Virus record (IMG/VR): IMGVR_UViG_3300021512_000003
Location: 17,889-81,888 of that record
Length of the DNA stretch: 64,000 bases
Reading direction: 5' to 3' (one strand)
DNA from: a virus
Position numbers and translations under genes: made by a program. Shown here piece after piece: positions 30,962 to 59,286 of the stretch. Each line of letters starts with the position of its first letter. Positions within the stretch are counted from its first letter, which is position 1. The notes below the pieces were generated by a model. It was not told the origin of the DNA. It did no database searches and saw only the letters and a list, made by a program, of their open reading frames with translations.

Positions 30962-31018
30962 TAACCTTTTGATTTCATCAGTATGACTTTGTGTAGTCTG
31001 TATAGTCCAGTGTTATAA
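30962..31018 (+). other. attI-like site A (IHF box plus simple site ending G/TTATAA)
   Basis: 30968-31016 is identical to 57401-57449 (49 bp); GTT at 31012 heads array 1; IHF consensus at 30962-30974. Confidence 0.7.
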
Positions 31019-31218
31019 ATAATAACCAAGAACCTAGGAGGTTCTAAATACGAAACCAATAAACCACCTAAACTATAAAACGATTGAGAAAGACCTCAAC
31101 CAAGCACTACAATCCCACATCTCTTACGAAGATTGGATGGAGTTTATTGTAAGACTTGTAGGCGGCTCGGAAGACATCTACCAGATCAACTACATACTTC
31201 CAACCAGTGCTGGTATTA

Positions 31219-31431
31219 CTACAGAAGTTCCGCTTGCAGAAGCAACTTCTTTATACGTGGGTATAATTCGTCTTGTTGCTCCTCCGCAAGTGTGAGTACA
31301 TCCCTGAAAACTTGCTTATCCTCACTACCGTCTGCAAGGAGGATTTTGGGGACGAGGAGGTAATCTACCTCTCCATTGATATGCCTCTTTATGTTGTCCA
31401 GAACTCCTTGAAGTAAAAGTGTATCTATCAT
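31219..31431 (-). CDS. cassette gene, hypothetical
   Basis: 70 aa with a GAGG RBS, between site A and attC 31458. Confidence 0.55.
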   Translation of the reverse strand: MIDTLLLQGVLDNIKRHINGEVDYLLVPKILLADGSEDKQVFRDVLTLAEEQQDELYPRIKKLLLQAELL

Positions 31432-31457
31432 ATCTCTGTCCTCTTATCTAAAATTAT

Positions 31458-31515
31458 TTCTAACAAGTTAATGTTGTCGGAATTGCTACGCAATCCGCAA
31501 ATTAAGACGTTATGT
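31458..31515 (+). repeat. attC-like site
   Basis: TTCTAAC AAGTTAATGTTG..ATTGC TAC GCAAT..CAAATTAAGAC GTTATGT hairpin. Confidence 0.8.
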
Positions 31516-31516
31516 G

Positions 31517-31891
31517 TCAGTACTGCTCTCTCATTTGCTGTCGAAGTTGCACAATTTCATTCTTCAGCTTCTCATTTTCCTCCACCAAATCTTGATTCAA
31601 GTCTTTAACTACCTCATCCTTATGGTTGGAGTAAATAGCTTGGCGCAACTCCTTGTAATCATACGTGTGGTTAGCCCTCCCCCCACGGTATCCTTTAAAT
31701 CCATCCATCAAGGCGTTTCGGTAATTTGTCCAGTGATCAGAGTCAACGTAATAACTGACATCAGTATATAAATCGCCCAATACCTCATTCATCAAAGCTA
31801 CAAGTTTGGGTTTAAAGCTGTCCATTATTTTCTGTGCTTCTTCTTTCCCTTGCTCTGTAAGTTCTGGGTATAAAGGATAATCTTCACTCAT
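31517..31891 (-). CDS. cassette gene, hypothetical phage protein
   Basis: 124 aa; unit bounded by GTTATGTG and CACATAAC. Confidence 0.7.
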   Translation of the reverse strand: MSEDYPLYPELTEQGKEEAQKIMDSFKPKLVALMNEVLGDLYTDVSYYVDSDHWTNYRNALMDGFKGYRGGRANHTYDYKELRQAIYSNHKDEVVKDLNQDLVEENEKLKNEIVQLRQQMREQY

Positions 31892-31914
31892 TTTAATCTC
31901 TCCCGTTTAATCGC

Positions 31915-31978
31915 ACATAACAAAGCACTGAAAAATCGGACTGGCAGAAGAGCCAGCCACTTACAATAGGCGCTATAC
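31915..31978 (+). repeat. degenerate attC-like site (R' GTT changed to GCT)
   Basis: ACATAAC AAAGC...CTGGC..GCCAG...AGGC GCTATAC. Confidence 0.6.
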
Positions 31979-31997
31979 AGCCGCCTGTTACTAACAC

Positions 31998-32207
31998 TTA
32001 TGTATTTGACGGTTCAACTTCTTCGCTAAACTGTAACCCGTATGTAGCACATTCTGTGCAAATTTCAGTTTGAATGTACTCACCTTCTCGGTCGTTAGTT
32101 GTGTTCAGCCCATATCTGCTTACCCTAAAAACTGAGTCGCAGTTGATGCACTTTGCTATATAAGCTCTTTTGTGCTTATTACTATGCCTAATTAACTCCA
32201 CTATCAA
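31998..32207 (-). CDS. small zinc-ribbon protein
   Basis: CINC...CTEC. Confidence 0.55.
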   Translation of the reverse strand: MIVELIRHSNKHKRAYIAKCINCDSVFRVSRYGLNTTNDREGEYIQTEICTECATYGLQFSEEVEPSNT

Positions 32208-32769
32208 AACCTCTACTGGTAATATAACAACGGGCTGTTTTGTCTCTCACTTCATACCCCTCACATAACAAAGCGGCTCTTAGCATCTTGATAGTGTCTT
32301 TAATCCTCCTGATAGAGGGGAGCTTCCTGTATTGTGTAAATTTGTGAACCTCTCCAACAGACTCGTATATCCAACCATCACATCTAATTTTAAAACAATC
32401 ACCAACCTTTATACATTGTACCACAAGGTCTGGCTTTTGTGTTATGTGTTTTCTTGCTTTCTTCTTCAGAGTCACCACCGTCAAGAAACATGTTATCGTA
32501 GTGTTGATGAGGTAAAACAACCACAGAATCACAGGCATTACAGACACCAACCAGTCTTACAAGTCCAGAGCCATCACTAAAAGGTGTATTTCTTAATTGA
32601 AATGTTACATTTTGAAATGACTTGCAAGGACTACAAGCTGCTCTTTTAGTGTCTCCAACCTTCAATGTTTGCTGCATATCTTTGTTGTTAAAACTCAAAC
32701 CCACCCCTCTACTTGTACCATTGTTGTTTGACGTATCTTCATAAAACAAGAGTATAGCACACTTAAAAA

Positions 32770-35280
32770 TTAATGACAATCCTTCCAGCTTCCTCCAATA
32801 ACGTATCCTGCTGTTAGTGGTACGTTTAGATTAAAATGCTTCCCAGCCTCATTTACAGATTGTGCTGCAAGCTCTCCTGTTGGAGAATAAGCAATATAGT
32901 AATCATCTTTCTTCCCTTTTTTTATGTCACTCCACATAATACCACCTTTCTCCTCTATTGTCTTGAAATTAATTGCTTCTTTTTCTGTAGGAAATGTCCT
33001 TATGTCTACTAATTCTTTACTTACACTATTCTGCCCTTCATCGTGATAAGCAATAGACTGCATGGAACACTTCTTCTTTGTTACATCCTCTTTAAATGGA
33101 TTACCAGAGTAGCCTAGTGCTTTATATTTCCTGTCTAGCCACACCATAGCCCACTTCATGCAGATAACACCTGCTGACTGGAACTTCACATTCAAAAGTG
33201 AGTGTTGACTCCTCGTAGGTAGTTGTCTACCATCTATTGCTGTAAGGAATTTCTTATTATTTGTACTCCACTCTGATTCAACTTGTTGTTTGTATATCGC
33301 AAGAGGTAGTGCATCTTCCCAGAAACTCTCGACCTCTTTCTTCCCTTTTGCCAAGCTCCAGTTCATTTGCTTTGCAGCCCCTGCTGCTGAAGAGCCGTAA
33401 GTTAGTGAGTATTTTAATGTCTTACTGTCATCTCTACTAATACCTTTACTCTCTGCTCTTCTCGAATGAAGGTCCTGTGGCTTCTTAGCTATGAGGGATG
33501 TACAATATGGGTGGCCTTCTGTATCACAGTTCCAAACGTAGTGCCCCTCTATCCTAGCCTCTAGACCATCAGCATCGTACCCCTCTAAGAAAGCGTACCT
33601 TGGGTCTGCCATGAAGAGTGCTCTCATGTGTTCTCCGTACAGACTACTGCTTCGAGGTACGTTAGCTACCCCCTTATGCTGGAATCTTGAGGTAGCACAA
33701 CCACAGGGGTCTGCTGGGGTGGGTATGCGTCCGTCTATGGCTAACCTGCCATGTGAGAGCCACCCTGTAATCCTCTTCTTCTTTTCACTGGCAGGGGAGT
33801 AGATAGAGTTCTTCCTGTGTCTGTATGTAAGCCACTCTACGATGTGCTTTACATACCACACTTTCCTACCTAGCCTTACGAGGTTATCACACAACTCTTT
33901 GTCTGCATTCTTAGTGAAGACAGGGAGGCCAACAACCTTTAATGGTTTGTTGAGTTTATGCTTCAGAAGCTTCTCTCTAAGGCCACTAGGTCTCACTCTC
34001 AAATTAGCACACCTCTCTTTCTCGAAAGGTGTACCTATTGTGGCCTCAATATACCTATCTACAGCAGCTTCAAACTTCTCTTGTGTCAGCTTCTTCTTCT
34101 TACTATCCAGTGTTAGGTCTTTGTCTTTCCAGTTCAGAGGGTTCCACCCCAGTGTTATTAGGTATGCCTTAATGTCTTCTTGGTGAGACAGTAGCATTGG
34201 CTCTGTAGTAACAAGAGACTCTCCCTCTGGTAAGGGGAGATCCCACATCTTATTAAAGATCTCAACCTTTCTTGGAAGGATAAGGGTTTTCTTTACTCTC
34301 TTGCCTACCTCTCTTTCTTCGTGAGCTACAACCCTACCTCCGTGCTTTTCTAAGAATTTAGCTAGATTAGCAGACATAGTACCGTCCCCAACAAATTGTC
34401 CTTTTGGAGGTATGAACTTTTTAGCTTCTGTCTTCCCTATCTTTTTTGGTGGTAGGAGGTGTTCTACATCTTGCTCTATCTTATCCATTTTCTGTGTAAG
34501 ATCTTTTACGCACCACTCAGCAAGCTTAATATTGAACTTAAAGCCGAAGTGTTCTTGTCTTGTTATAACCTCTGCTACAGCCTTCTCTAACTTGTAAGCC
34601 TCACCCCAAGACCACGTACCCCACTCCTTCTGGAGCATCTTGTACACTGCTAGGTTAGCTATACAGTCTTGGATGTTGTAGTAGAGCATGTCTGCACCAA
34701 ACCACGTAAACCTGTCCTCGTCCCACTCTTTTCCATGTCTGAACTCAACCTTAAAAGAGCCTGCTGCTTGAGACATCTTTGCAAGGGAATGTCCACACCA
34801 CCTATCTGGGTTTAACACTTTAGACATAACAAGTGTGTCGTGAATGTATACGTCTTTACCACCTACCGTGTCAGACTCTTCTTTATTGAAGCCAACAGTG
34901 TATGGTTGGTCATAAAGTAGGTCCATTAAGAGAAGGTCGTAGTTAATAATGTTATGACCTATAAGCATCTTTGCCTCGTCTTTGATGAAGGCAGGCACCT
35001 CGCTTAGTGGGTAGTGTGTGTATTCATACTGTGTGTAGTGCTCTAGTGGCACAGTGAGTCCATTCGGGTATGTTGTGGTGTGAGATCTACCGTCAAACAG
35101 TATCTTGTCACCATCACAAAATGCAAACAACTCAGAAGTGGTTGTGTCAAGAAATACAAAGCAATGTGCCTTAAAAGAGGGAAGAAGCTTATATGGCATT
35201 TTGCTGTAGTCAATAGACTCATAATTGAGTAGGTTATTAGCTTCTGCATCAAATATTAACTTCCTTCCTGACATATTCAT
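32770..35280 (-). CDS. DNA polymerase, family A (T7-like) with a 3'-5' exonuclease domain
   Basis: FDAE, GHNIINYD, YNIQD; motif A DADGLEARI; motif B RDDSKTLKYSLTYG; motif C YHDE. Confidence 0.95.
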   Translation of the reverse strand: MNMSGRKLIFDAEANNLLNYESIDYSKMPYKLLPSFKAHCFVFLDTTTSELFAFCDGDKILFDGRSHTTTYPNGLTVPLEHYTQYEYTHYPLSEVPAFIKDEAKMLIGHNIINYDLLLMDLLYDQPYTVGFNKEESDTVGGKDVYIHDTLVMSKVLNPDRWCGHSLAKMSQAAGSFKVEFRHGKEWDEDRFTWFGADMLYYNIQDCIANLAVYKMLQKEWGTWSWGEAYKLEKAVAEVITRQEHFGFKFNIKLAEWCVKDLTQKMDKIEQDVEHLLPPKKIGKTEAKKFIPPKGQFVGDGTMSANLAKFLEKHGGRVVAHEEREVGKRVKKTLILPRKVEIFNKMWDLPLPEGESLVTTEPMLLSHQEDIKAYLITLGWNPLNWKDKDLTLDSKKKKLTQEKFEAAVDRYIEATIGTPFEKERCANLRVRPSGLREKLLKHKLNKPLKVVGLPVFTKNADKELCDNLVRLGRKVWYVKHIVEWLTYRHRKNSIYSPASEKKKRITGWLSHGRLAIDGRIPTPADPCGCATSRFQHKGVANVPRSSSLYGEHMRALFMADPRYAFLEGYDADGLEARIEGHYVWNCDTEGHPYCTSLIAKKPQDLHSRRAESKGISRDDSKTLKYSLTYGSSAAGAAKQMNWSLAKGKKEVESFWEDALPLAIYKQQVESEWSTNNKKFLTAIDGRQLPTRSQHSLLNVKFQSAGVICMKWAMVWLDRKYKALGYSGNPFKEDVTKKKCSMQSIAYHDEGQNSVSKELVDIRTFPTEKEAINFKTIEEKGGIMWSDIKKGKKDDYYIAYSPTGELAAQSVNEAGKHFNLNVPLTAGYVIGGSWKDCH

Positions 35281-35330
35281 AACCTATAGTTAAAGTAACA
35301 AGCTCCTGCACTGTTTTGCAACTTGTGCAT

Positions 35331-35672
35331 TTAGTCGTGCTTTGCCTCTTCCAAGTTAGCCAAGGCTGCTGCCAACTCATCTTCAAAGTAATGCTTACCT
35401 CCAATCAACACTGTACTTCGCAAGTCTTCTCCACACAACCACCCTATGTCAATGTCTGCACCAATGTCTTCACTAAAGACAACTCCACTGTTACTAGAAA
35501 GGATTTTTCCAGTAACACCTGTAAATAAAAAACATTTATCCGTATGACGGAAACGCTTACCACCCATAGACCACCTATACCCAAGGACAAATAAGCGCTC
35601 TTGTATAACCTTACTCACTTCCTTGTCGTAACCAATGTTAAACTTCATATTTTTAAATTCAAACATATACAC
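35331..35672 (-). CDS. hypothetical phage protein
   Basis: IQERLFVLGYRW; GAGG RBS. Confidence 0.6.
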   Translation of the reverse strand: MYMFEFKNMKFNIGYDKEVSKVIQERLFVLGYRWSMGGKRFRHTDKCFLFTGVTGKILSSNSGVVFSEDIGADIDIGWLCGEDLRSTVLIGGKHYFEDELAAALANLEEAKHD

Positions 35673-35973
35673 CTCTTATTTTATGTGATCTGTTGTACTG
35701 TGGGTACAAGCATAGCATACAGTACTGTGCGACACAAGTACGTTCCTTTTTCCTTACCTTTGGTAACCCGTTGTGCCATCTCTTAACTCTCTTATTAACC
35801 TGATAGCTTTATTTAACTTTAGGAAGACATCGGCAGCTACCTCTACATCGCACAACAAGTAGATAGATTGCTGCGTCTCCCTTAGCTCTGCAATAAAATC
35901 ATCTATCTCATTTTGTTGTTTTGTCATCACACTGCCTCTTGTTAAGTGTTAGTTGGTTTCACTCTAACCGGTG

Positions 35974-36735
35974 TTAAGCATACTGACTAATTCCCTCTTC
36001 ACACCACACATCACTCGACCCATCAAGACTAGCATGAGCAACCTTGTCAATAAAACTGTACTCCTCCTCACCCTGAAACTCTGAGACAAACTTGTACTTT
36101 CTTATAGCCATATACTTTGCTTCGTTCTTCATCATTGTAAAAAGTAGACCTTCCGATGTGTCTTCATTCTCAATGAAGCCTAAAGGTACTCTCTGAATAA
36201 ACTTTGTGGCAGCAAGCCAGTACGCTTCACTTACCTCTACCTCAGACAGATTAAACCTTCTAGTAACCATGTGCGGCATAGACAGTGCCCATCTTCCAAT
36301 TTCTTTTTCTAAAGGGGTTTTATTTAATAGACAATGCTGGTAACAGGCTTTCCCTAGAACACTCTTGAACTTACTGTAGTGCTGTAATGTCCTGTGATCA
36401 GCTACAGTGTTAAAATCATACAGCCCCGCCAAATTCTCAGCCCGACAGTTCAGCGTATCCTTATCTCTAAAAACTATCTTACTGCAATCTGAGTCAGGTA
36501 GGAAGTGTTTTGCAACAAGAGTGTGTACGAACACATTAAACACTCTCCCTTGTGTTGTTTTGCGGCTTAAAAACACCCTAAGCCTTGGGCTAGAGTTCTT
36601 GCGCCTTTTGCTTATATAAGGTTTCAACACCTTCTCTCCAAACTTCTTTGTCCAACTCATAACTCTACCAAGACTGCTGATATAGGCGTTATCTATTCCG
36701 TTAATAGCTTTCCACTCTTCACTACTCATAGTCAC
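35974..36735 (-). CDS. NUMOD4/HNH-like protein with a degenerate active site and helical C-terminal domain
   Basis: EEWKAI, YISSLGRV, VHTLVAKHFL; VFRDKDTLNCRAENL where VNH.DG...NN...NL is expected. Confidence 0.7.
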   Translation of the reverse strand: MTMSSEEWKAINGIDNAYISSLGRVMSWTKKFGEKVLKPYISKRRKNSSPRLRVFLSRKTTQGRVFNVFVHTLVAKHFLPDSDCSKIVFRDKDTLNCRAENLAGLYDFNTVADHRTLQHYSKFKSVLGKACYQHCLLNKTPLEKEIGRWALSMPHMVTRRFNLSEVEVSEAYWLAATKFIQRVPLGFIENEDTSEGLLFTMMKNEAKYMAIRKYKFVSEFQGEEEYSFIDKVAHASLDGSSDVWCEEGISQYA

Positions 36736-36744
36736 CTCTTACAA

Positions 36745-37020
36745 TTAAAACTCTGGTCTACACCCTTCACCATCACTCTCTTGTGCAGATGTATGCTTGT
36801 TCCTTGCTTCCCACTCTTGTATTGTATCACAATGTACGTCCTCAAGGAAGCCCTCTGGTGGTTCTATAAAGTCTCCTGTTGAGTTATCGTAGAACAAAGG
36901 AACCTTCCCAGTACGCCCATACTTCCTGTCGTCAAGGACTACCAAAGAACGTGTGTTCTTTTCTTTAGTGGTTTGGTCTGGGTCTTTATTCCCCTCTAAG
37001 CCAATCATGTAGTGACAACA
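36745..37020 (-). CDS. primase-helicase exon 2
   Basis: CCHYMIGLEGNKD...LDDRKYGRTG completes the SF4 helicase motif H4 and Arg-finger region. Confidence 0.85.
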   Translation of the reverse strand, partial: CCHYMIGLEGNKDPDQTTKEKNTRSLVVLDDRKYGRTGKVPLFYDNSTGDFIEPPEGFLEDVHCDTIQEWEARNKHTSAQESDGEGCRPEF

Positions 37021-37734
37021 CAAATATGTTCAAGGAGGTTCGCTACTACCTCCCCCGCACCACCTCTTAGGTGCTGCTGCTCTAGCTTTCACTAGAAGTT
37101 CAGACTATATCACCATCTCCTTATAAGAGATGCCTTCCATTTCCACCACCAATAGCTTGTGGTGTACGAGCTTACGCTCTAGTCGTTGAGGTTTACTAAC
37201 TTCTTTGTAGTACCCCTAGCCTTGTACCAAGCATCACCTGAGCAATACAGTGAGTTGGTTACAGCATGTTGTACGTTTTCTTGTTGGGATACTACCTCAA
37301 GATTACTTAAAGAGTTATTTACTGTGTTACCATCTATATGGTTTACAACTTCATTTTTATTAAGTTGTCTACCTATATGTACTGAAGCAATTAACCTATG
37401 TAGCATATAAAGCTTATCTTTTAGCCTTACACGCATATAGGGGTTTTTACTTCTTCCCCAGTGCTTGTAAGGTTTTAACCTCTTAATTTGAGGTTTTCTT
37501 GCTATACTATATATGTTACCTTTTAAGTCTACAAAGTATTTATCCATTTCTGGTACTTGCAGTAAATCTTGTTTTGTTAGTCTTACCTGCTGATTGCCCA
37601 TTGTAACATCCTTTTATTGTTCATCATTGTATCACACATAACTACCAAGCTCTACAACTATAAAAAGGCTTTAGGGGTTTCCAGCAATTAAAAAGGTTTG
37701 CAAAGAGAGTCACCTCTCTAGGGCGCTATTGTTA
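37021..37734 (-). mobile_element. group I intron (714 nt, IA-like) in the primase-helicase gene
   Basis: P1 GCGU/UAACAAUAGCGC with a U-G pair; P AAUUGCUGGAAA; Q AAUCAGCAGG; R UCAACGACUA; S GAUAGUC; terminal G; splicing restores SRSMMR-CCHYMIGLEGN in frame. Confidence 0.9.
37179..37601 (-). CDS. intron-encoded HNH homing endonuclease
   Basis: HRLIA...VNHIDGNTVNNSLSNLEVVSQQENVQHA. Confidence 0.9.
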   Translation of the reverse strand: MGNQQVRLTKQDLLQVPEMDKYFVDLKGNIYSIARKPQIKRLKPYKHWGRSKNPYMRVRLKDKLYMLHRLIASVHIGRQLNKNEVVNHIDGNTVNNSLSNLEVVSQQENVQHAVTNSLYCSGDAWYKARGTTKKLVNLND

Positions 37735-39231
37735 ACGCATCATAGACCTACTACCAGTGAACTGAGAACTATAAACCTTCCCTCCAAACTCATGTGGCTG
37801 GCCTTTATCTGGTGCTTTAAGATGACAGAAGCAATAATAAGTAAAACCTAAATCTATACTCATCTTACTAATCTCATCAGCAAACCTATCAAGCTCCGTG
37901 TTTGCCTCGGAGGGAGTCATCCCTGTTGTAAGCCTGGTTATCGGGTCAATAATGATGTCTTCGCAATGCTCAATAAGAACTGCATGACGTATAGCCCCTT
38001 TCAGCTCATCCCAACTACACCTACCATAGTTATTATACAGGCAAAGACGTGGGCCTGTCTTGTCCGAGGCTGCTATTAAGTCTTCTTGAGTGAAGTAGTT
38101 TGACCTGTCAACAGGAGGGGCTTTCTCTTGGAACTCACCACAATCATCAACATAGAGGACAACCTCCTCTCCTTTCTCATTAAAGAAGATAGCCTTCTCT
38201 GGATTAGTGAAGTCCTTCTTAGACTCCTTACCAGCTACACGGTGAATCGTCTCCGTTGTCGGTTCCTCGAATTTAAACACAGCAACCTTCTGAGGCTTAC
38301 CTAGTGAGTTCTTATCTCGCGCCAATATGTGACTAATTAGTTTATCTGCTAGACAACTCTTGCCCTGCTTCACACCTGCCCCAAAGTAATACCCCTCCCC
38401 CAACCTACGTCCTAATGTAAGTCTTGTTAAAGACCTCCAAGGCCACGTCTTACCTACCACAGGTAACTTATGTGTCTCCTCTCTAATCTCCTCGTAGAGA
38501 GTAAAACCTTCTGGTGTGTACTGGGAAGGCTTCATCAGCATCCAGTAAAGAGCTGTACTCCCCTCTTTCAAGTAGACATCACAAGGGTCACTATCTTCTG
38601 GTAGTTTTGCCACAAGCATATCTGGGAATAGTCCATATACGTCAGCAGTGGCCTCATTGCCTCTCTTTATCTTCTTTAGTCTCTCTTGTGGTGTTGCACT
38701 ATCGTTATCAAAAGCAAACACCTTCTCACTAAATTTATTCAGGTAACGTGTATTTGCTTTCTGTCCTAAGTTCTGAACAGCGTTAGCTGTCCCACAACCA
38801 ATACTTAGTGTGGTGGGATTACCTTTACCTTTGTAACCTTCCTTTAGGCATTGCCACATAAGCATACAATCTATCTCACCCTCACTAACAAATACTTTCT
38901 TCCCCCCAGTCTTATTACCAGATACCAGCCCAAACAAATCGCACTTAACACCGTGATACCCTATAGAGGTGAAGTGGAAGTTACCTTGCTTTGGCTTAGT
39001 CAAGTCTCGCTTCTTATAACCTACAATCCTATCTTCTATTGTGTAGGGGAAGTAGTGAGCTATAGGTGTACGGCCATCACTACTGCTAAGCTCAGTTCTA
39101 ACACCAAAATGCTCTGCTGTCTTTTGTGTGATCTTCCTTTCTTCTATAGGAAGGATAGGAAAGGTGAGTACGTCTGCTAACGTCTGCTCCTTCACTCTCC
39201 CATAGCTTACTCCTGCTGTAGCTTTATTCAT
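37735..39231 (-). CDS. primase-helicase exon 1 (TOPRIM plus SF4 helicase)
   Basis: SEGEID, FDND, Walker A GAGVKQGKS, IIDPIT and CHL; start placed at ATG 39231 (GGAGAG RBS). Confidence 0.92.
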
Positions 39232-39427
39232 CTTCTCTCCTGTTTGGTATGTCATAGTCTCACCTATCCATTAAAGCCTTTTAATTATCTGGTGTGTGTA
39301 TACATAGTTAATACCTTATCGTTAATACCTCATCTTTTTATAATGTACATACTAAGACGTTCTCTAAAACCGTACAGTATTCTTGTTCCTCTGTTAGCCT
39401 TACCACAGGCTTACTACTACTGGTTTG

Positions 39428-39484
39428 TAAGTGCTTGATTTTACTCCTACGACCTTGCGTAGTCTGTATAGTCCAGTGTTATAA
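39428..39484 (+). other. attI-like site B
   Basis: Ungapped match to sites A and C with identical core GTAGTCTGTATAGTCCAGTGTTAT; GTT at 39478; IHF consensus at 39428-39440. Confidence 0.7.
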
Positions 39485-39486
39485 AC

Positions 39487-39687
39487 CTAATCATTGTTAG
39501 GTTTTGGCTTAAAGTCACCATCAGCATCGCAATGCTCAGGTGGCCACCCATGCTTTCTAATATTCATCGCTCTAAGCGGATACTTTATTAAATACCTATA
39601 GAGCGTCTCAAGCATTAACCCAATACCCACAATAATAAAAAATGTAAGAACTGGACTGTCGCTCATAAATTCATAAATTGTTGTCAT
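39487..39687 (-). CDS. cassette gene, small membrane protein
   Basis: One TM helix, then HGWPPEHCDADGDF; unit ends GTTATAAACC and GGTTTATAAC. Confidence 0.7.
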   Translation of the reverse strand: MTTIYEFMSDSPVLTFFIIVGIGLMLETLYRYLIKYPLRAMNIRKHGWPPEHCDADGDFKPKPNND

Positions 39688-39709
39688 ATCTATGGCCTGT
39701 TAAGTCGGT

Positions 39710-39781
39710 TTATAACAAAGCAGTCAAGCTGACAGTCTCTACGCTGCGCTTCGTTCCTGCCGCTTACTTATTGCGTTATGT
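39710..39781 (+). repeat. attC-like site
   Basis: TTATAAC AAAGC AGTCAAGC...GCTTACT TATTGC GTTATGT; extra C in L''. Confidence 0.9.
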
Positions 39782-40468
39782 TGCACTAATTCTATCTTGT
39801 GCAATCTTAAAGTATTCTTCATCTAGCTCAATGCCAATAAACTTACGACCAAGGTTTTTACAAGCTACGCCTGTGCTACCGCTACCTAAAAACGGGTCGA
39901 GTATTGTTGCACCTTTATCACTAAACTTTATCAATAGGTATTCCAATAAATCAACTGGCTTTTGTGTTGGGTGTAATTTATTGCCAGTTCTATTGAACTT
40001 TAAAATATTAGGATCACGCTTACCGTTTATAAGTCTACGTCCTTTCTGTATAAAAATAATCATTTCATACTTTGGTGCAAAGTCGGCTTTTAAATCACCC
40101 ATACTAGTGTTGTTCTTTTCCCATATAAGTATATTCTTTATTTTAAATTTTTGCTCTAGTGCTTGCTTGAATTTATCAATATTATGAAAGCTACAAAAAA
40201 CATAATGCGCCGTATTGTCCGCAGCAACTCTAAATAATTCATCAATCCAAACATCAAGCCATCTTAAGTCTTTATCGTTTTTTATCTTACTGTATTTCTC
40301 AATCCTATAGTTACTCTGAAACTCCATACCATATGGCGGGTCGGTCAATATCATATCAACTGAACCATCAGGTATTTCTTTCATTCTTTCTAAGCAGTCT
40401 CCTTGCATCAACCAAGGATTTAGATCTTCTTTTTCTATATCTGCTAGTCGTTCATTTTTGTAGTGCAT
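39776..40468 (-). CDS. cassette-borne DNA adenine methyltransferase (N6/N4 family, beta class)
   Basis: TDPPY, HPTQKP and LDPFLGSGST; stop codon lies inside the attC GTTA. Confidence 0.92.
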   Translation of the reverse strand: MHYKNERLADIEKEDLNPWLMQGDCLERMKEIPDGSVDMILTDPPYGMEFQSNYRIEKYSKIKNDKDLRWLDVWIDELFRVAADNTAHYVFCSFHNIDKFKQALEQKFKIKNILIWEKNNTSMGDLKADFAPKYEMIIFIQKGRRLINGKRDPNILKFNRTGNKLHPTQKPVDLLEYLLIKFSDKGATILDPFLGSGSTGVACKNLGRKFIGIELDEEYFKIAQDRISAT

Positions 40469-40493
40469 TTTAATCTTTCCTTTAGTTCGTGCA

Positions 40494-40569
40494 ATATAAC
40501 AACAATTTCAAAAAGACACGTACAGTTTGTTCCAAACGTGCCCTTAGCATTTTAAATTAAGGGTTATGT
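40494..40569 (+). repeat. attC-like site
   Basis: ATATAAC AACAA TTTCAAAA..CACGT..ACGTG..TTTTAAA TTAAGG GTTATGT. Confidence 0.75.
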
Positions 40570-40584
40570 TACTAAACCAAGCGT

Positions 40585-40973
40585 TTACCAACTACATAAA
40601 TCATGCTGTTTATTTAGAGAGTGCATCTCTACATCTTCGCACGTCTCAATATCAAACATTCCAATATGGCAATCACTTGGCTCAATATTTAAAGTCTCAG
40701 CTAGCCATTTGTATGCTTCTTTTCTTTTCATATCTCCAAATTTCCATAATGGATCAAAGGCTCTATGCGCTGCGCTTTTTGCTTTTCTTAGCTCTTTATT
40801 TGCCAACCTACCTAATGGCTTTGTTGTTCCTTTGTGTGTACCAACGTAGGCATCACAACCAACACAAGAGTAAAAACTCAAGCTAAATAAATCCTTTCGG
40901 TGTGGGTAAACTTCCTTTCCTGTAACTGCCTTTGAGAATTGTTTGCAGTATGGGCATGTTGGTGTCAAATTCA
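40585..40973 (-). CDS. cassette gene, zinc-finger protein (DUF3268-like)
   Basis: CPYC, C..CDAYVGTH, PLGRLA, AH.AFDPLW and CHIGMFD; start MNLTPTCPYC. Confidence 0.8.
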
Positions 40974-41000
40974 TTCTATCAATCCTTTTTAGTGGTGGTA

Positions 41001-41073
41001 ACATAACAAGGTTTTCAAAGCGGACACATTACAGCGTACCGCTTTCATTTAGCCGTTTAAAACGAGGTTAGGT
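41001..41073 (+). repeat. attC-like site
   Basis: ACATAAC AAGGT TTTCAAAG CGGAC...GCCG TTTAAAA CGAG GTTAGGT. Confidence 0.8.
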
Positions 41074-41099
41074 TGCAAAAACAACATTTAAGTTGTCCA

Positions 41100-41297
41100 T
41101 TAAGTGACTGAACGAATATCCAGACTTTTCATGCTTTTTATGTAAAGAACTCTCATACCAGTCGCCATCTCCATTGCAACCTTTAATTCTGCATTATTAG
41201 GCTCGAATCTTGAGTATAAGATAGTATAATCACCATTCAATTCAGGAGAACTCTTACTATTGAGTATAACTTTCTCGCCTGCTTTAAATTTAGCCAT
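41100..41297 (-). CDS. cassette gene, hypothetical
   Basis: MAKFKAGEKVIL; 65 aa. Confidence 0.6.
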   Translation of the reverse strand: MAKFKAGEKVILNSKSSPELNGDYTILYSRFEPNNAELKVAMEMATGMRVLYIKSMKSLDIRSVT

Positions 41298-41323
41298 AGA
41301 ATAACCCCTTTAATTTAACAGCA

Positions 41324-41382
41324 GCCTAACAAGGCTGCTGTTTTGGAAGCGCTGAAGCGCTCCACAAAGCTTTACGTTATAT
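41324..41382 (+). repeat. attC-like site
   Basis: GCCTAAC...TGGAAGCGC TGAA GCGCTCCA...GTTATAT; near-identical to 57689-57747. Confidence 0.85.
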
Positions 41383-41609
41383 GTAATAAGTGTCCACACA
41401 AACTTCAGCATGAATGTGTATCTGGTCTTTTCCACATCTCTATCTAAACCATCTTAAACAGTCGTATACTTAAACCCCCTCACAACAAACCGGACACCCT
41501 TGTGAGGTTAAGCGGTAGCCCACCAAGGAGGAGGGCAAGCACTCAAACTTTACTTACGATTAACACTCAGTTCTGTGGTGGCAATAACTGACCAACCACA
41601 GGAAAGCAT

Positions 41610-41708
41610 ATGGACCCAATTAGCATCATCCTCACCCTTAAAGTCGCAACCCTATCCGTTGCGCTAGTTACTGAACTCGTCAAGCTGTATAAAGAACTTA
41701 GTAAGTAA
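41610..41708 (+). CDS. 32-aa hydrophobic peptide, candidate type I toxin (TisB-like pattern)
   Basis: MDPISIILTLKVATLSVALVTELVKLYKELSK; AGGA RBS inside a stem; structured leader. Confidence 0.55.
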   Translation: MDPISIILTLKVATLSVALVTELVKLYKELSK

Positions 41709-41843
41709 CTAACAATTAGAGTGCAGTACCAAAGATAATCTATAAAACGGTTTCAGAATCCAACTGAATAAAATGGAGTTTAAAATAAATCTTAAATCAG
41801 TAGCGTCTTATCCTCCTTGAGTTTGGCGCTCATTAAATATTAC

Positions 41844-41915
41844 ATCTAACAATCACATTAAGTCACTTCGTTCGGACTGTCGCTGACGCGTCAGCCGCTT
41901 ATGTGGGCGTTATAT
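41844..41915 (+). repeat. attC-like site
   Basis: ATCTAAC AATCACATTAAG..CGGACTG..CAGCCG CTTATGTG GGC GTTATAT. Confidence 0.8.
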
Positions 41916-42172
41916 CACTCATCCACCCATAAAAGCTTTTTAGTTATTCTGGTTTCAGTCACTTCTTTAGAGGTCTCAATGATCTCTGATTTTGTTTTGA
42001 ACATCACGAACAGCCTCTCAAGCTCTGCGTCGAGTGCTGCATCAAAAATATCACTCATCCCATGATCGGTGGCGTAGTCGCGCATACAAAGGAGTTCTAT
42101 GGTGTAATCTCCCAGCTCACACCCGTCAAGGTGCGCGTATTCGGTCAGAATGTTGTATCTATCTTCGTTCAA
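41915..42172 (-). CDS. cassette gene, hypothetical
   Basis: GGAGG RBS, TTG start, 85 aa. Confidence 0.65.
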   Translation of the reverse strand: MNEDRYNILTEYAHLDGCELGDYTIELLCMRDYATDHGMSDIFDAALDAELERLFVMFKTKSEIIETSKEVTETRITKKLLWVDE

Positions 42173-42185
42173 AATAACCTCCGTA

Positions 42186-42241
42186 ATCTAACAATCAATT
42201 TAAACCGGATTGCTACGCAACCGCTTAATTGAGCGTTATAA
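42186..42241 (+). repeat. attC-like site
   Basis: ATCTAAC AATCAATTTAAACCGGATTGC TAC GCAACCGCTTAATTGAGC GTTATAA; near-identical to 58787-58842. Confidence 0.9.
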
Positions 42242-42250
42242 GGCTTAGCC

Positions 42251-42502
42251 CTAATTCTCTTTCTCCCAATTCCTTTCGCCTTTTTCAAAGGCAACAGCGA
42301 TGTCCAGCACCTCTCTCACGGTTTTTCCGTACTGGTGCTGCGAAGGAAGGCTGAATATCTCAACAGGTACTTTTTCCATACCTGGTTGGCTTCCAATCAA
42401 AGAGTTTTGTTGTATTTTAACGCCACATCCCTCACCTGTGCCGTCTTCCACTAGCATACGCTCTATAAAGTCGATGCGGTCTTTGTCTGTAATTTCGCTC
42501 AT
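42251..42502 (-). CDS. cassette gene, hypothetical phage protein
   Basis: ITDKDRIDFIE...TVREVLDIA; unit ends GTTATAAGGC and GCCTTATAAC. Confidence 0.7.
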   Translation of the reverse strand: MSEITDKDRIDFIERMLVEDGTGEGCGVKIQQNSLIGSQPGMEKVPVEIFSLPSQHQYGKTVREVLDIAVAFEKGERNWEKEN

Positions 42503-42529
42503 GTTTATATCCTTGGTAGGTAAATCGCC

Positions 42530-42586
42530 TTATAACAAGGCATTGCAGCGGACGCGCTCTGCGCGCCGCATAGTTTTGCGTTAGCT
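42530..42586 (+). repeat. attC-like site
   Basis: TTATAAC AAGGC ATTGCAGCGGACGCGC TCT GCGCGCCGCATAGTTTTGC GTTAGCT. Confidence 0.85.
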
Positions 42587-42780
42587 ATCATTAATTACTC
42601 TACGCACTGCACACAATTTATCCCCGACAACGATGTAGCCCGCTTTTATCCGTTGTGTAAACTGGGCGCGTTGCACTCCGATTGCTCGCGCAAATGCGCT
42701 TTGATTCCTTTGAAAGTTTCGGCTATAAAGTCGGCCAGCCTTTTCAGCCCGTCCGCTTTGCATTTTTCGCTAGGTTTCAT
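42581..42780 (-). pseudogene. Cro-like HTH gene, apparently frameshifted
   Basis: MKPSEK..LADFIAETFKG in one frame continues as NQSAFARAIGVQRAQ..GYIVVGDKL in another. Confidence 0.5.
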
Positions 42781-42986
42781 AGTAGATTAGAGTCGATATA
42801 TTCCTGCGCTTCATCCTTGGAAGCGAAGGTGAGCGCACCTTTTTCATCGCTCACATCAGCTCGCGCAATCGAATCATATATTAAAAACGGCCCTGCAAAA
42901 TCAAACCGCCAAAGCCGAGTTGGGTGAAACCTGCATTCCATAACCCAACCCCCTATGTTGTCTGCGTTGCAAATTTCGTGACTCAT
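42777..42986 (-). CDS. cassette gene, hypothetical
   Basis: GAGGAG RBS; C-terminal FASKDEAQEYID. Confidence 0.6.
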   Translation of the reverse strand: MSHEICNADNIGGWVMECRFHPTRLWRFDFAGPFLIYDSIARADVSDEKGALTFASKDEAQEYIDSNLL

Positions 42987-43034
42987 GTTGTTTCTCCTCA
43001 GCGCCTTCGGGTCACTCCCTTAGCTCATGTATGT

Positions 43035-43063
43035 ATAGTAATATACACCCCACACACTGTCAA
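43035..43063 (-). promoter_or_regulatory. sigma70-type promoter inside a cassette
   Basis: TTGACA-17 bp-TACTAT on the minus strand. Confidence 0.7.
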
Positions 43064-43093
43064 CGAAATGCTATACAAATAATCAAATAAAAT

Positions 43094-43155
43094 AGCTAAC
43101 AAAGCAACTCAAATCCGACTCCGCTGGCGCTTGCGGTTTAGCTGAGGCGTTATGT
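43094..43155 (+). repeat. attC-like site
   Basis: AGCTAAC AAAGC AACTCAAATCCGAC...GCGGTTTAGCTGAGGC GTTATGT; extra C and extra A on the left arm. Confidence 0.9.
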
Positions 43156-43350
43156 GGAAAAACAGGCCTCAAGGGCATCTAAATACTGTGGTAAATTCTC
43201 ATAGTTTCCCGTAAGCTCAGCCGTCTTCCTTTCACTAGCGACTGCTCTTGCTGATGAGAGAACGCGGAGCACTTGATGGCTGGTTCCGCCCTGCCAGCTT
43301 AGTGCTTTTATAGCCTCTTCCAAAAACGGATCTTGTTTATTATTTGTCAT
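43150..43350 (-). CDS. cassette gene, hypothetical
   Basis: 66 aa (ALSWQGGT); stop codon inside the attC GTTA. Confidence 0.65.
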   Translation of the reverse strand: MTNNKQDPFLEEAIKALSWQGGTSHQVLRVLSSARAVASERKTAELTGNYENLPQYLDALEACFST

Positions 43351-43387
43351 ATAGATATACCTATAGTTTATTTGTGGTTATAAATTC

Positions 43388-43428
43388 ACATAACAAGGCA
43401 GTCAAGCAGACTGCTGAAAGCGTTGCTT
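43388..43428 (+). repeat. truncated attC-like site (left arm only) ending array 2
   Basis: ACATAAC AAGGC AGTCAAGC AGAC matches the left arm of 39710; no L' partner. Confidence 0.65.
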
Positions 43429-43488
43429 TTTTCAAGTTCTTTGGGGATTTCATGTTTCATTCCTCTTAGTGTAAAGATGTATTTTACC

Positions 43489-43926
43489 TTATGACCAAAG
43501 CCCTGTAAAGTATTTAGCAAACAATCGTAAACCCTCTTTACACTTCTCTTCGTAGACAGACACATCTTCTTTGTATCTTGTATATTCTTGTGGGTTGTCG
43601 GGAGCTAAGCTCAGGACTCCGTTGCCTACAAGATCAGGGAAGGTGAAATTATAATCTTCCATACAAGGCTCACCATAGGGGTCAAAAGCTTCCACCATAC
43701 GATCAAGCACGTACAGCCAAGCCTCCAGCCCACCTAACCCACTCAAAGCATCTCCCTCTTCCACCTCACAATAAGAGGATAGCTCTTTCTTGAATAGAAT
43801 AAGAAGTGGGTGGATGATTAGTTTTAATGTTTCATCTACACTCCATATGTCCCACTCATCAACCTTTATCTTAACCTCTCTCTCTCCACCACAAGTTCTT
43901 GGGTAGTTCCCTATCTGTACTTCCAT
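43489..43926 (-). CDS. hypothetical phage protein
   Basis: DIWSVDETL..IIHPLL...EGLRLFAKYFTGLW. Confidence 0.7.
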   Translation of the reverse strand: MEVQIGNYPRTCGGEREVKIKVDEWDIWSVDETLKLIIHPLLILFKKELSSYCEVEEGDALSGLGGLEAWLYVLDRMVEAFDPYGEPCMEDYNFTFPDLVGNGVLSLAPDNPQEYTRYKEDVSVYEEKCKEGLRLFAKYFTGLWS

Positions 43927-44429
43927 ATTAAACCTCTAGTATGTTGGTGTTCAGTTAAATACTAAACAGCCTCTCTACGTGTAAAAAACATGTATCTGGT
44001 AGGGTAGCCTACCTTTTCACAGAAAACCCCCTACACAGGGGCTTAGGAGGCTTCTCGCTTACAATACACTCCCCTAATAGGTGCACTTCTGAGAAAAGGA
44101 GGGCACACCTTGAAGTGTATCCGCATCCTTAGCAGTTTTCCCACAACTAACCGTACATTGTGTGCCGTTATTCTCTACTTCCAGTTTAGCCTTTGCAAAG
44201 AGTCCTTTTGTAACCCCATACTCCCAAGCATAGTTTTGATATGTTTGAGCCTTGAAGGGACTTTCATTCTCTGTTGAGGTGTACCCTCTTTCGTAAGCAT
44301 CGCAAACACTTCTTACAAGGTTGTCCAAAGCTTTATCCTTTTGTGTGGTTGAAGTTGGGAGGTTATAGGAAAATATATCCATTGTCAAATAAAATAATAT
44401 TGACTTGGAGTAGTTGCAAGCGAGTCTTT

Positions 44430-56039: not shown

Positions 56040-56048
56040 TATACAGTG

Positions 56049-56072
56049 AAGGGGCACAAAGCCCCTTTTTTT
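56049..56072 (+). terminator. intrinsic terminator at the convergent junction
   Basis: AAGGGGC-ACAAA-GCCCCTT followed by a T run. Confidence 0.8.
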
Positions 56073-56080
56073 ATTACCGA

Positions 56081-56752: not shown

Positions 56753-56834
56753 GGTAAGCCTCTTAGTTATGTGTCTTAGTAGGCACACTATAACTTAAGA
56801 GGCTCGTAATTGCAAATGTTGGTCAGCTAATAGT

Positions 56835-57383: not shown

Positions 57384-57394
57384 CCTGTTGTGTG

Positions 57395-57451
57395 TAAGTG
57401 TTTGATTTCATCAGTATGACTTTGTGTAGTCTGTATAGTCCAGTGTTATGT
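57395..57451 (+). other. attI-like site C
   Basis: 49 bp identical to site A; GTT at 57445 heads array 3; IHF consensus at 57395-57407. Confidence 0.7.
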
Positions 57452-57454
57452 GGC

Positions 57455-57664
57455 TTATTGGTTATCCACTTTCACAGTAATAGCGCCATCCAGTGTTATG
57501 CAGTATCTTTCAAGCCCAAGGGAGACTCTGTATTCTGGGTAGCCTTTTCTTAGGCACTCAGCCTCTGTGTAAATTGCTACTGGCGGAATAATGAAGGCGC
57601 AATACAATATGAGTAAGACGGCTGGTGTAACGACAGCTAGTATTATCTTTTCGATTAAAATCAT
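57455..57664 (-). CDS. cassette gene, small membrane protein
   Basis: TM helix, then ECLRKGYPE..YC. Confidence 0.65.
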   Translation of the reverse strand: MILIEKIILAVVTPAVLLILYCAFIIPPVAIYTEAECLRKGYPEYRVSLGLERYCITLDGAITVKVDNQ

Positions 57665-57688
57665 ATCTTTCTCCGGAGATAAAGCACC

Positions 57689-57747
57689 TCATAACAAGGT
57701 GCTGTTTTGGAAGCGCTGAAGCGCTCCACAAAGCTTTAGTGTTATAA
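57689..57747 (+). repeat. attC-like site
   Basis: TCATAAC...GCGC TGAA GCGC...GTTATAA; near-identical to 41324-41382. Confidence 0.85.
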
Positions 57748-58095
57748 AACTCGATAGGCATGGTAGTAACCAGCCGCGCGTCTTTTAAATGTGCCGATCG
57801 TGGTAATATGCAGTTTTCCAGCGTTAAATTCATTACCATCTGGATCAACCCAGCGGCGAGTATAAAAAACTCGCTCTAGGTACCTCCCTGGCTTGTGTAT
57901 GTCGACCACCTTTAAAATCATTTCCCCGATTCCTTCAGCAACAAGCTCATGATCTCCTGAAGCGGTCGGCTCACTTTTGCACCCTGGAATCCATACGTAA
58001 TCCGAGTAATATTCACCAGTAACGGCATACCATTCATGGGTTCCCGTATAAAACGGGAATTTAACTCTAATATGCTGCCCATTGTGCAATTCCAT
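57742..58095 (-). CDS. cassette gene, hypothetical phage protein
   Basis: GGAGGAG RBS before MELHNGQ; RVFYTRRWVDPDG; stop codon inside GTTA. Confidence 0.7.
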   Translation of the reverse strand: MELHNGQHIRVKFPFYTGTHEWYAVTGEYYSDYVWIPGCKSEPTASGDHELVAEGIGEMILKVVDIHKPGRYLERVFYTRRWVDPDGNEFNAGKLHITTIGTFKRRAAGYYHAYRVL

Positions 58096-58112
58096 AACTC
58101 CTCCAAATCGTT

Positions 58113-58178
58113 TTATAACAAGGCGTTTCACGCAGACCGCGCAAAGTGACGCGCGACTGGTGAACTTAGTCGTTAGTT
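58113..58178 (+). repeat. attC-like site
   Basis: TTATAAC AAGGC GTTTCACGCAGACCGCGC...GCGCGACTGGTGAAC TTAGTC GTTAGTT. Confidence 0.85.
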
Positions 58179-58373
58179 TGCTTCGTTATCTATTTGAATT
58201 TTCATTTTTACCCCCCTATACGTAAATTCCGATGGCTCGGTATCTTTGCCTTTTGCAGCGGTGAAGGACTCAAGAAATAAATCCAGACCAAAAACATTAA
58301 GCCCAGCATCCAATATTGCCTGCCCAGTTATACCGGTATTTTTATTGCTCCTTGTGAATTTATTTTGTGACAT
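58173..58373 (-). CDS. cassette gene, hypothetical
   Basis: 66 aa; stop codon inside GTTA. Confidence 0.6.
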   Translation of the reverse strand: MSQNKFTRSNKNTGITGQAILDAGLNVFGLDLFLESFTAAKGKDTEPSEFTYRGVKMKIQIDNEAN

Positions 58374-58402
58374 TTGGTGTTACTCCGTAGGTATTACTGG
58401 CA

Positions 58403-58464
58403 ACCTAACAGTCGCATTAAAATCTAACTTCGCTGGCGCTTCGCAGTTTATGCGAGCGTTAGAG
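58403..58464 (+). repeat. attC-like site
   Basis: ACCTAAC AGTCGCATTAAAA...GTTTATGCGAGC GTTAGAG. Confidence 0.8.
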
Positions 58465-58761
58465 TGCTAAACAGTCTCTTATTTGCTTAGCCTTGCTTTC
58501 CTGCCCTTTTGTGAATGCTCTTCCTTTTTGAACCTCAATGACCCCTAGTATTTCTTCGGCTGTGAATTGCTCTATGCACTCGTCGTCTGATCGGAAGGCG
58601 CATTCTCCATCGAAGGAGATTTTAAGAAATTTGGTAAGATGACATTGTATCGTCGTCATCGCCCCCTCCGCTAAACTCCACACCACCACACTGAAACTGT
58701 CGCTGCTGTAAGCAGTTCGCCCTCCGCCACCGGGTTTTTTAGCGGTTCGTTCTAATCTCAT
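58459..58761 (-). CDS. cassette gene, hypothetical
   Basis: 100 aa with a GGAG RBS; stop codon inside GTTA. Confidence 0.65.
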   Translation of the reverse strand: MRLERTAKKPGGGGRTAYSSDSFSVVVWSLAEGAMTTIQCHLTKFLKISFDGECAFRSDDECIEQFTAEEILGVIEVQKGRAFTKGQESKAKQIRDCLAL

Positions 58762-58786
58762 AATCCCTGCTCCTTGTTTAGCCGTA

Positions 58787-58842
58787 ATCTAACAATCAAT
58801 TTAATTCGGATTGCTACGCAACCATTTAGTTGAGCGTTATAA
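58787..58842 (+). repeat. attC-like site
   Basis: Near-identical to 42186-42241. Confidence 0.85.
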
Positions 58843-59040
58843 GCTTGGTTCCGGCTTGCTATTAGCTTTCATCTCCTCTCGCTTAACGCAGTGTGCCGGA
58901 ACGTTAATCTCTATCTGCACCATCTGCTCATTGAAATCCACGCCGACTATCTTCCCGACCACACCATTAACTATTACGCGCTCGTGGTGCTTAACGCCTT
59001 CGTCTAAAATGTTTTTGGCTCTAATTGTTTGGCCTATCAT
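58837..59040 (-). CDS. cassette gene, hypothetical
   Basis: 67 aa with an AGGAG RBS; stop codon inside GTTA. Confidence 0.6.
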   Translation of the reverse strand: MIGQTIRAKNILDEGVKHHERVIVNGVVGKIVGVDFNEQMVQIEINVPAHCVKREEMKANSKPEPSL

Positions 59041-59064
59041 TTCGTTCTCCTGTCTCTGCGAGGG

Positions 59065-59286
59065 TTATGTTCTAAATGTTAGCCCACAAATAATTGCGAT
59101 AATAGAACTAATAATTACAACATTTACAACACGGTTGTTCCTCTCCCGACGATTTTTTTTTGCGAAGTCCTGTGCGTAGCTTAATTCCTGTTTAGTTACA
59201 GGTGTGCCAAGTTTTATGGCTTGGCGTATAGAGAAAAAACTTTTCACTACTGCCACTCCAATATTAAAATAAACATAACAAAGCAC
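59065..59286 (-). CDS. cassette gene, small membrane protein (start uncertain)
   Basis: Unit bounded by GTTATGTT (59064) and AACATAAC (59272-59279). Confidence 0.5.
   Translation of the reverse strand: MLCYVYFNIGVAVVKSFFSIRQAIKLGTPVTKQELSYAQDFAKKNRRERNNRVVNVVIISSIIAIICGLTFRT

Follow-up and report, generated by a model that had tools for sequence, protein, structure and literature searches.

Complementary unit ends in the cassette arrays of a phage genome suggest movement as integron-type circles

Can gene cassettes travel as circles into, and within, a phage genome that contains no recombinase of the families we searched for? The question is raised by a 64,000-nt stretch of viral DNA (the window, bases 17889-81888 of the 81,888-bp virus record IMGVR_UViG_3300021512_000003), in which small accessory genes are arranged in rows of integron-style cassettes, with hairpin sites between them that are 50-70 nt long and have the form TAAC aa ... 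gc GTTA. An earlier note on this DNA had proposed that the two ends of each cassette are complementary to each other, as expected of excised circles. We argue here that the units are probably integron-type gene cassettes that moved as circles via these hairpins, i.e. attC sites, with an integron integrase of the host acting on them in trans.

The record carries 127-bp direct terminal repeats and a completeness rating of 100%. The genome as a whole holds 21 distinct sites in five arrays and four identical attI-like heads: arrays A, B and C start at window positions 31012, 39478 and 57445, a fourth starts at genome position 4868, and the fifth spans the genome end from window position 62260 onward. 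Arrays A, B and C possess one, eight and four complete sites, respectively, two further window sites lie at 62260 and 63950, and each of the three arrays terminates in a half-site consisting of TAAC and the first arm without GTTA. Such an arrangement, with at least two attC sites close together and no integrase nearby, is that of a cluster of attC sites lacking an integron integrase (CALIN), and not that of a complete integron, in which an intI gene would stand beside the array.

Complementarity of unit ends

All nine start/end pairs that the earlier note had quoted are present in the sequence where it placed them: 39478/39707 (10/10 bases), 39775/40489 (11/12), 40563/40998 (10/10), 41067/41321 (9/10), 41376/41838 (12/13), 42235/42527 (10/10), 42580/43092 (9/9), 57741/58110 (10/10) and 31509/31914 (8/8). 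They are, at the same time, the best of the 16 units of arrays A, B and C, and the other seven score 5, 5, 5, 4, 4, 4 and 1 of 6 beyond GTTA/TAAC. The whole set was therefore judged by permutation, the six bases following GTTA being compared with the complement of the six bases preceding the unit's own TAAC, and with the ends of other units. For these 16 units own ends match at 4.75 of 6 positions and foreign ends at 2.35, none of 100,000 shuffles reaches the own sum, and the own end is the best partner of 14 units. Own pairs are thus far ahead of shuffled ones and the proposal stands for the window units as a set, but not for each of them, given that unit C5 (Table 1) matches at a single position of six.

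The effect is the same when all 25 units of the genome are considered (own 4.68/6, foreign 2.27/6, 0/100,000). It likewise yields 0/100,000 in each of four subsets, namely without the five half-site units, the ends of which were chosen by eye (N = 20), with three look-alikes counted once (N = 18), in the window only (N = 13), and for units running from attC to attC (N = 14). Position by position, own-end matches are found in 17-22 of the 25 units at positions 5-10 and in 11 at positions 11-12, and fall to background at positions 13-14. Pairing within a single in-array attC is worse, as the earlier note also had it: the flanks of the 21 sites match at 1.76/6, with 3-8 of 21 matches per position, which is the background level. 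It is thus the cassette's own start that completes its site, and the predicted folding agrees: when a site is joined to the start of the same unit, the mean energy drops from the -11.0 kcal/mol of the array context to -13.6, with an improvement for 17 of 20 units. Units that come first after an entry site pair as well (4, 5, 6 and 4 of 6 in the four cases; foreign ends reach this sum in 0/100,000 draws), again in keeping with the earlier note.

That the two ends of an integron cassette pair is standard integron knowledge; what it says about this phage follows from topology. The R'' box adjoins its own unit's start only in a circular or tandemly repeated form, and hence the pattern points to a circular stage in the history of each unit. 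The pairing, together with the blocks bounded at GTTA that are described below, thus supports the view that the pattern is evidence of movement as circles. The pairing pattern does not tell, however, which enzyme formed the circles or whether they were formed in this phage or in an earlier carrier.

The mechanism that we propose would run as follows. A unit consists of a gene plus one attC hairpin and is opened in the array at G|TTA of its R' box, such that the last bases of the site (about six beyond GTTA) end up at the far end of the unit, being complementary to what precedes its own TAAC (R''). Recombination between two attC sites, with the bottom strand folded, would cut the unit out as a circle, and insertion would take place at one of the conserved attI-like entry sites or at another attC. 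The enzyme would be the host's integron integrase, acting in trans during infection, and the genes would be read by phage transcription that enters each array at its far end and proceeds to the entry site.

Hairpin geometry, gene direction and entry sites

The sites were collected with a covariance model, R1, built from 15 window sites that had been defined without consulting their flanks. With filters off, R1 recovered these 15 sites, six more in the 17.9 kb outside the window and the terminal-repeat copy of one window site, with no other match in the window. All 21 distinct sites lie on the + strand, read TAAC ... GTTA and thus carry the AAC/GTT triplets, the AAC triplet being the sole element conserved among all sites according to the part of Nivina 2016 that describes them. 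The same part places the extrahelical bases on the L'' arm at bottom-strand positions 16, 20 and 23/24, the last of which is a conserved T. In this phage a model with three single-base bulges on the TAAC-side arm beats its mirror image in 20/21 sites (212 versus 162 pairs of 252), position 16 carries the first bulge in 15/21 sites, and the third bulged base is a top-strand A, i.e. a bottom-strand T, in 13/19. The spacer, L box and extrahelical bases of the imperfect hairpin (Nivina 2016) are all there. By their predicted folds, then, the sites are attC hairpins of the canonical kind, their top strand being the + strand; the bulges on the TAAC-side arm fix this orientation, and with it place the entry sites where attI would be.

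R1, trained solely on this phage's sites, was also applied to controls. In the Shewanella prophage M16-3 (MZ568829), a positive control with a published integron and CALIN, it finds 15 sites, of which the 11 in the integron are on the - strand and the four in the CALIN on the +, with none elsewhere in the 40-kb record, and in Escherichia coli K-12, the negative control, it finds no site. The end test on 13 M16-3 units gives 4.62/6 for own and 2.28/6 for foreign ends (0/100,000 permutations). With the effect size being the same, the phage units behave as true integron cassettes do, and the way in which each site is divided between its unit's two ends can be regarded as an integron trait. Two independent metagenome contigs, L023 and L024, contain 10 and 6 R1 sites (E up to 0.05), to which a weak head hit in L023 can be added, and the 11 distinct of their 15 units show a weaker effect (3.64/6 versus 2.44/6; 420/100,000 permutations). 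The sole - strand R1 match in the genome, L021 9555-9610 outside the window, is weak (E = 0.31); about 350 nt neighbouring it recur within a 577-nt unit of L023 and L024, the ends of which are unpaired.

Some further observations concern the sites themselves. Near-identical attC bodies stand behind unrelated genes in two cases, 41327-41379 (B4) with 57692-57744 (C1) and 42189-42238 (B6) with 58790-58839 (C4). In the B4/C1 pair, moreover, the stretch preceding TAAC is complementary to the opening bases of the site and has TTTT after it; the letters differ between the copies, but the pairing is kept. At the attC 41847-41912 the summed contig depth in the source run is about 214 versus about 35 elsewhere, with several contigs continuing into other flanks, so that this site sequence evidently occurs in other genomes of the sample as well.

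The genes face the other way. Those with Pfam support (a methyltransferase and a DUF3268 protein) are on the - strand while the sites are on the +, the most plausible open reading frame (ORF) in most ORF-bearing window units is also on the - strand, and in seven of those - strand ORFs the stop codon is the complement of TTA in GTTA, as it is in B2. The order of a promoterless gene followed 3' by its attC on the top strand is thus not what is found here. Since the site that travels with the C4 gene lies 5' of that gene, we conclude that the cassettes are built backwards. The idea that they are ordinary cassettes inserted by their top strand was rejected, for the bulges would then be mirrored (Figure 1D of Nivina 2016), which is not seen.

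As for the heads of the arrays, a 23-nt core ending in GTTA is identical in its four copies, all on the + strand; identity ends just past GTTAT, and each copy precedes a different first unit. A degenerate form of the motif occurs four times in the phage genome, solely at the entry sites, and once in L023, the array of which is headed by ...TATAGTCCGGCGTTAT, a sequence similar to the entry core TATAGTCCAGTGTTAT. We regard the entry sites, on the basis of this conservation and of their position, as putative attI-like docking sites. No exact match to the motif was found in viral contigs or metagenome contigs, and the leader was not found beside any intI. The single exact match to the core in bacterial genomes (L022) was considered as a lead to the host and set aside as chance: about one 20-mer is expected, the match is inside an ORF, and there is no R1 site in that locus or genome. 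The sequence WATCAANNNNTTR, the consensus of the integration host factor (IHF), is matched four times in the window versus 3.67 expected, a count not above chance. Three of the four matches are in the leaders (30962-30974, 39428-39440 and 57395-57407, on the - strand), starting 50 nt before the G of GTTA; because the leaders are copies of one sequence, these are not independent evidence. Matches resembling sigma-70 promoters or terminators are not above shuffles in array B, and none is at its entry site.

Block movement and the competing explanations

If the units had moved, they should be met in other company, and this is the case. Unit C4 recurs in L023, L024 and L025 at 91-93% identity, which makes four contexts including the phage, and the homologous stretch begins at the left GTTA, takes in the gene and the complete site on the right, and stops at the right GTTAT. 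Wherever the left border is visible, in three contexts, the sites on that side are unrelated, and the sequence past the right-hand site differs in all four. B9, together with its decayed half-site, is met again in L023 (85% identity), where another attC precedes it and the homology begins at GTTA (two contexts), and the 3' part of B1 with its attC recurs in L024 at 97.5%, followed by a different unit (two contexts). L023 encodes a primase-polymerase, a family A polymerase, a PD-(D/E)XK nuclease and an SNF2 helicase, and as it has no other similarity to the phage it represents a different phage-like backbone. The statement that the units moved as blocks bounded at GTTA, with the right-hand site always kept, is thus borne out by independent contigs.

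Three sequencing runs, the source run X1 and two others, X2 and X3, were examined as assembled contigs only. Contigs of X2 and X3 join parts of arrays B and C by four joints, comprising all those that involve arrays, at most 6 nt from a GTTA/TAAC box. A contig of X3 joins the B7 attC to the C2 start inside GTTA, which is weak evidence given that its shorter side has 29 letters and its depth is 2.6. For most other array joints of X2 and X3, including one that goes back from 43399 to 39478, what lies between is not known, and these are read as different arrangements rather than as circle junctions; the small word shares of X2 and X3 have no bearing on habitat.

That the host supplied the integrase is inferred from the lack of a candidate in the phage: six-frame searches of the whole 81,888-bp record gave no match to PF00589 with E up to 10, none to TIGR02249, no serine recombinase and no Y1 transposase. 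It also leans on the geometry of the sites, which is that of IntI substrates, and on the activity of IntI1 on attC sites of other virulent phages reported in the relevant passages of Qi et al. 2023.

Several observations weigh against this reading. No host integrase emerged from the searches made: 596 billion bases of bacterial genomes hold the entry core exactly once, about as often as chance would give, in an ORF with no attC nearby. A recombination role of the entry sites is putative. Among the assembled contigs there is no circle junction, and among those of X1 no variant of an array. The consensus R' box GTTRRRY is present in 2/25 starts and the consensus R'' box RYYYAAC in 7/25 ends; the R' box of the phage instead reads GTTAT(R)(W), and the Shewanella control integron likewise departs from GTTRRRY, as judged by eye and not counted. 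C5 (58836-59279) is unpaired, three of the 11 distinct L023/L024 units fail the end test (0, 1 and 2 of 6), and the half-sites in which the arrays end are not predicted by a simple history of insertions. Finally, the backward genes could not be driven by a bacterial integron's Pc promoter, and simple trading with host arrays therefore falls short as a full account.

Some of these points would be naturally explained if the arrays were fossils, that is, cassette blocks captured by illegitimate recombination from a bacterial integron or some other element, with a pairing that predates their arrival in the phage and with nothing moving there now. There is no integrase in the genome, the ends are decayed half-sites, the source-run contigs hold no array variant, and capture of this kind is discussed for phage CALINs in the passages of Qi et al. 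2023 (PMC9892861) devoted to them. Yet fossils would not perceivably give rise to four identical, dispersed entry copies each followed by a different first unit, nor to the same units differently ordered in two other runs and on a phage-like backbone that is unrelated. Nor would one expect the Pfam-supported cassette genes all to follow phage transcription instead of the integron direction, or a methyltransferase whose DNA is 72-75% identical to that of ordinary Vibrio and Pseudoalteromonas phage genes. We consider the fossil explanation unlikely.

Alternatively, the units could have moved just as proposed but by means of an enzyme other than IntI, such as a Xer-like or other host recombinase, or an unrecognised phage protein, acting on attC-like hairpins. 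The bulges at 16, 20 and 24 with a bottom-strand T at the last make an IntI-specific geometry that is hard to reconcile with this, as is the fact that R1 picks the true integron sites and nothing else from the 40-kb control record; no such sites were found in the 151 Flavobacteriales genomes sampled, and the phage lacks a tyrosine recombinase even at E up to 10. What speaks for such an enzyme is that XerCD also act on folded single strands, as a passage of Nivina 2016 mentions, and that the backward genes point to a cassette pool apart from classical integrons. On balance it is an improbable explanation. Least credible by far is that the pairing is no mark of recombination at all, the units being transposon-like with terminal inverted repeats that land in hairpins, or the hairpins being regulatory and shuffled by homologous recombination: each gene is indeed flanked by GTTAnnnnnn ... 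nnnnnnTAAC and some attC bodies are reused with unrelated genes, but the conserved block takes the whole right-hand site and never the left, as an inverted-repeat unit would not, the pairing ends after about 6-8 bases like an R box, promoter-like and terminator-like matches are not enriched, and no Y1 transposase was found.

Cassette contents, related systems and phage biology

The units and entry sites are listed in Table 1.

Table 1. Entry sites, cassette units and further attC site of the window (window coordinates; end match is given as bases of six beyond GTTA/TAAC).
Feature	Position	Strand	Genes	Site	End match
Entry site A	30962-31015	+		conserved leader, GTTA 31012-31015; IHF-consensus match 30962-30974 on -	
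Entry site B	39428-39481	+		conserved leader, GTTA 39478-39481	
Entry site C	57395-57448	+		conserved leader, GTTA 57445-57448	
A1	31013-31509	+		attC 31461-31512, R1 E=5.3e-06	5/6
A2	31510-31960	+	ORF 31517-31891 (-)	half-site TAAC 31918-31921, no GTTA	4/6, GTTATGTG / CACATAAC
B1	39479-39775	+	ORF 39487-39687 (-)	attC 39713-39778	6/6
B2	39776-40563	+	DNA methyltransferase 39776-40468 (-), PF01555 E=8.4e-42	attC 40497-40566	5/6
B3	40564-41067	+	DUF3268 zinc-finger protein 40585-41004 (-), PF11672 E=7.1e-38	attC 41004-41070	6/6
B4	41068-41376	+	ORF 41100-41297 (-)	attC 41327-41379	5/6
B5	41377-41909	+	no ORF >38 aa	attC 41847-41912, best R1 score (50.7 bits)	5/6
B6	41910-42235	+	ORF 41915-42172 (-)	attC 42189-42238	4/6
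B7	42236-42580	+	ORF 42251-42502 (-)	attC 42533-42583	6/6
B8	42581-43149	+	ORFs 42581-42763, 42777-42986 (-)	attC 43097-43152	5/6
B9	43150-43431	+	ORF 43150-43350 (-)	half-site TAAC 43391-43394	5/6
C1	57446-57741	+	ORF 57455-57664 (-)	attC 57692-57744	4/6
C2	57742-58172	+	ORF 57742-58131 (-)	attC 58116-58175	6/6
C3	58173-58458	+	ORF 58173-58373 (-)	attC 58406-58461	5/6
C4	58459-58836	+	ORF 58459-58761 (-)	attC 58790-58839	4/6
C5	58837-59366	+	ORFs 58837-59040, 59065-59286 (-)	half-site TAAC 59276-59279	1/6
attC of further array across genome end	62260-62312	+		R1 E=5.9e-06	
W1	62310-63999	+	ORFs 62659-63000, 63002-63325 (-)	attC 63950-63999 in terminal repeat, R1 E=4.8e-06	3/6

The B2 methyltransferase, likely a counter to restriction, has methyltransferase counterparts with 72-75% DNA identity in cultured Vibrio and Pseudoalteromonas phages, where they are ordinary head-module genes; no R1 site was found beside the homologues of two cultured phages. 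C5 is, read post hoc, probably two fused units, as an internal GTTATGTT at 59064 pairs with the C5 end ACATAAC. Upstream of 59064 there is an apparent 3' end of a lost attC, i.e. the picture of a fusion by site decay. The flank 62250-62259, which precedes the site at 62260, is complementary over five bases (TAAGC) to the C5 start at 58840-58844; this may be chance, or the stretch 58836-62263 with its phage genes may once have been one unit.

A1 shares just its first 36 nt and about its last 21 nt with two units outside the window (genome positions 882 and 6080), and a paralogous origin of the three was rejected because they have only their ends in common. A module with a palindromic ribosome-binding site (AACCTAGGAGGTT) opens three units (window 31012-31047, L021 882-918 and several places in 6080-7215) and also precedes several small + strand ORFs, the window copy being without a start codon. 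The A2 half-site resembles the half-site at 59276.

The backbone genes of the phage, a family A DNA polymerase, a helicase-like ATPase, a 5'-3' exonuclease and HNH endonucleases, are on the - strand. The closest cultured relatives by polymerase (PolA) are lytic phages of Gammaproteobacteria, with about 41% identity, which can be taken as a weak hint at the host group. A scan with R1 of 20 helicase loci from related phages (44-64% identical) was negative. No match turned up in viral contigs for the 26-nt attC core, the C4 protein or the L023 primase, nor among phages for window positions 24000-44000 by megablast; a plasmid search of array B gave just two weak methyltransferase matches, and an Rfam search of the window at the gathering thresholds no family.

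CALINs in virulent phages are already published. The part of Qi et al. 2023 (PMC9892861) dealing with them describes, among others, that of Pseudoalteromonas phage H101, and reports that, of six attC sites from virulent phages put to the test, IntI1 recombined five, including those of H101. H101 resembles the phage studied here in having no intI, cassettes bounded by attC sites and an orphan DNA methyltransferase among these. In its array (L036, NC_029094, 75922-77984) we find four R1 sites on the + strand, which may include the two H101 sites that Qi et al. tested, and all annotated genes on the - strand; the unit ends match at 5, 6 and 5 of 6, two of the three units being copies of each other. 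The first H101 site is directly preceded by GTTATA. Where our phage differs is in its 21 sites and five arrays, in the identical leader on four of them and in the cassettes it has in common with an unrelated backbone. The passages of Qi et al. 2023 (PMC9892861) on the H101 layout call it typical and are silent on antisense genes.

M16-3 and sedentary chromosomal integrons share with this phage the TAAC ... GTTA hairpin family and an own-end complementarity of the same size. Unlike the phage, M16-3 has intI and its 15 sites are all co-oriented with the cassette genes; its CALIN is headed by its own attI, according to the passage of Qi et al. 2023 (PMC9892861) that deals with it. The class 1 site attC(aadA7), to the extent that the source describes it, has the same AAC/GTT crossover triplets, R and L boxes, extrahelical bases, short loop and G|TT opening. 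In contrast to class 1 cassettes, the phage has GTTAT(R)(W) in place of GTTRRRY, a pairing of about 10 bp and its gene on the other strand, with the site 5' of it. In the literature searched there were no antisense cassettes, no repeated attI-like head, no phage with so many arrays and no cassettes common to unrelated phage backbones.

Taken together, the pairing and the shared cassettes show, as far as sequence comparison can, a phage apparently devoid of a recombinase taking part in cassette traffic. With somewhat less than even confidence we would go further and propose that marine virulent phages keep several attI-like docks of their own, together with a phage-owned pool of backward cassettes that are expressed by read-through and moved by the host's integrase, the platform thus being split between virus and host. 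In practical terms, end pairing offers a cheap test, requiring nothing but sequence, for the integron-type nature of cassettes, and one that also fixes the position of the cut; surveys that assume co-oriented genes, on the other hand, could misread cassettes built backwards. If it is the host integrase that does the work, the backward genes would mark a separate cassette pool owned by phages, and phages, like bacteria, would exchange genes with one another by way of integrons.

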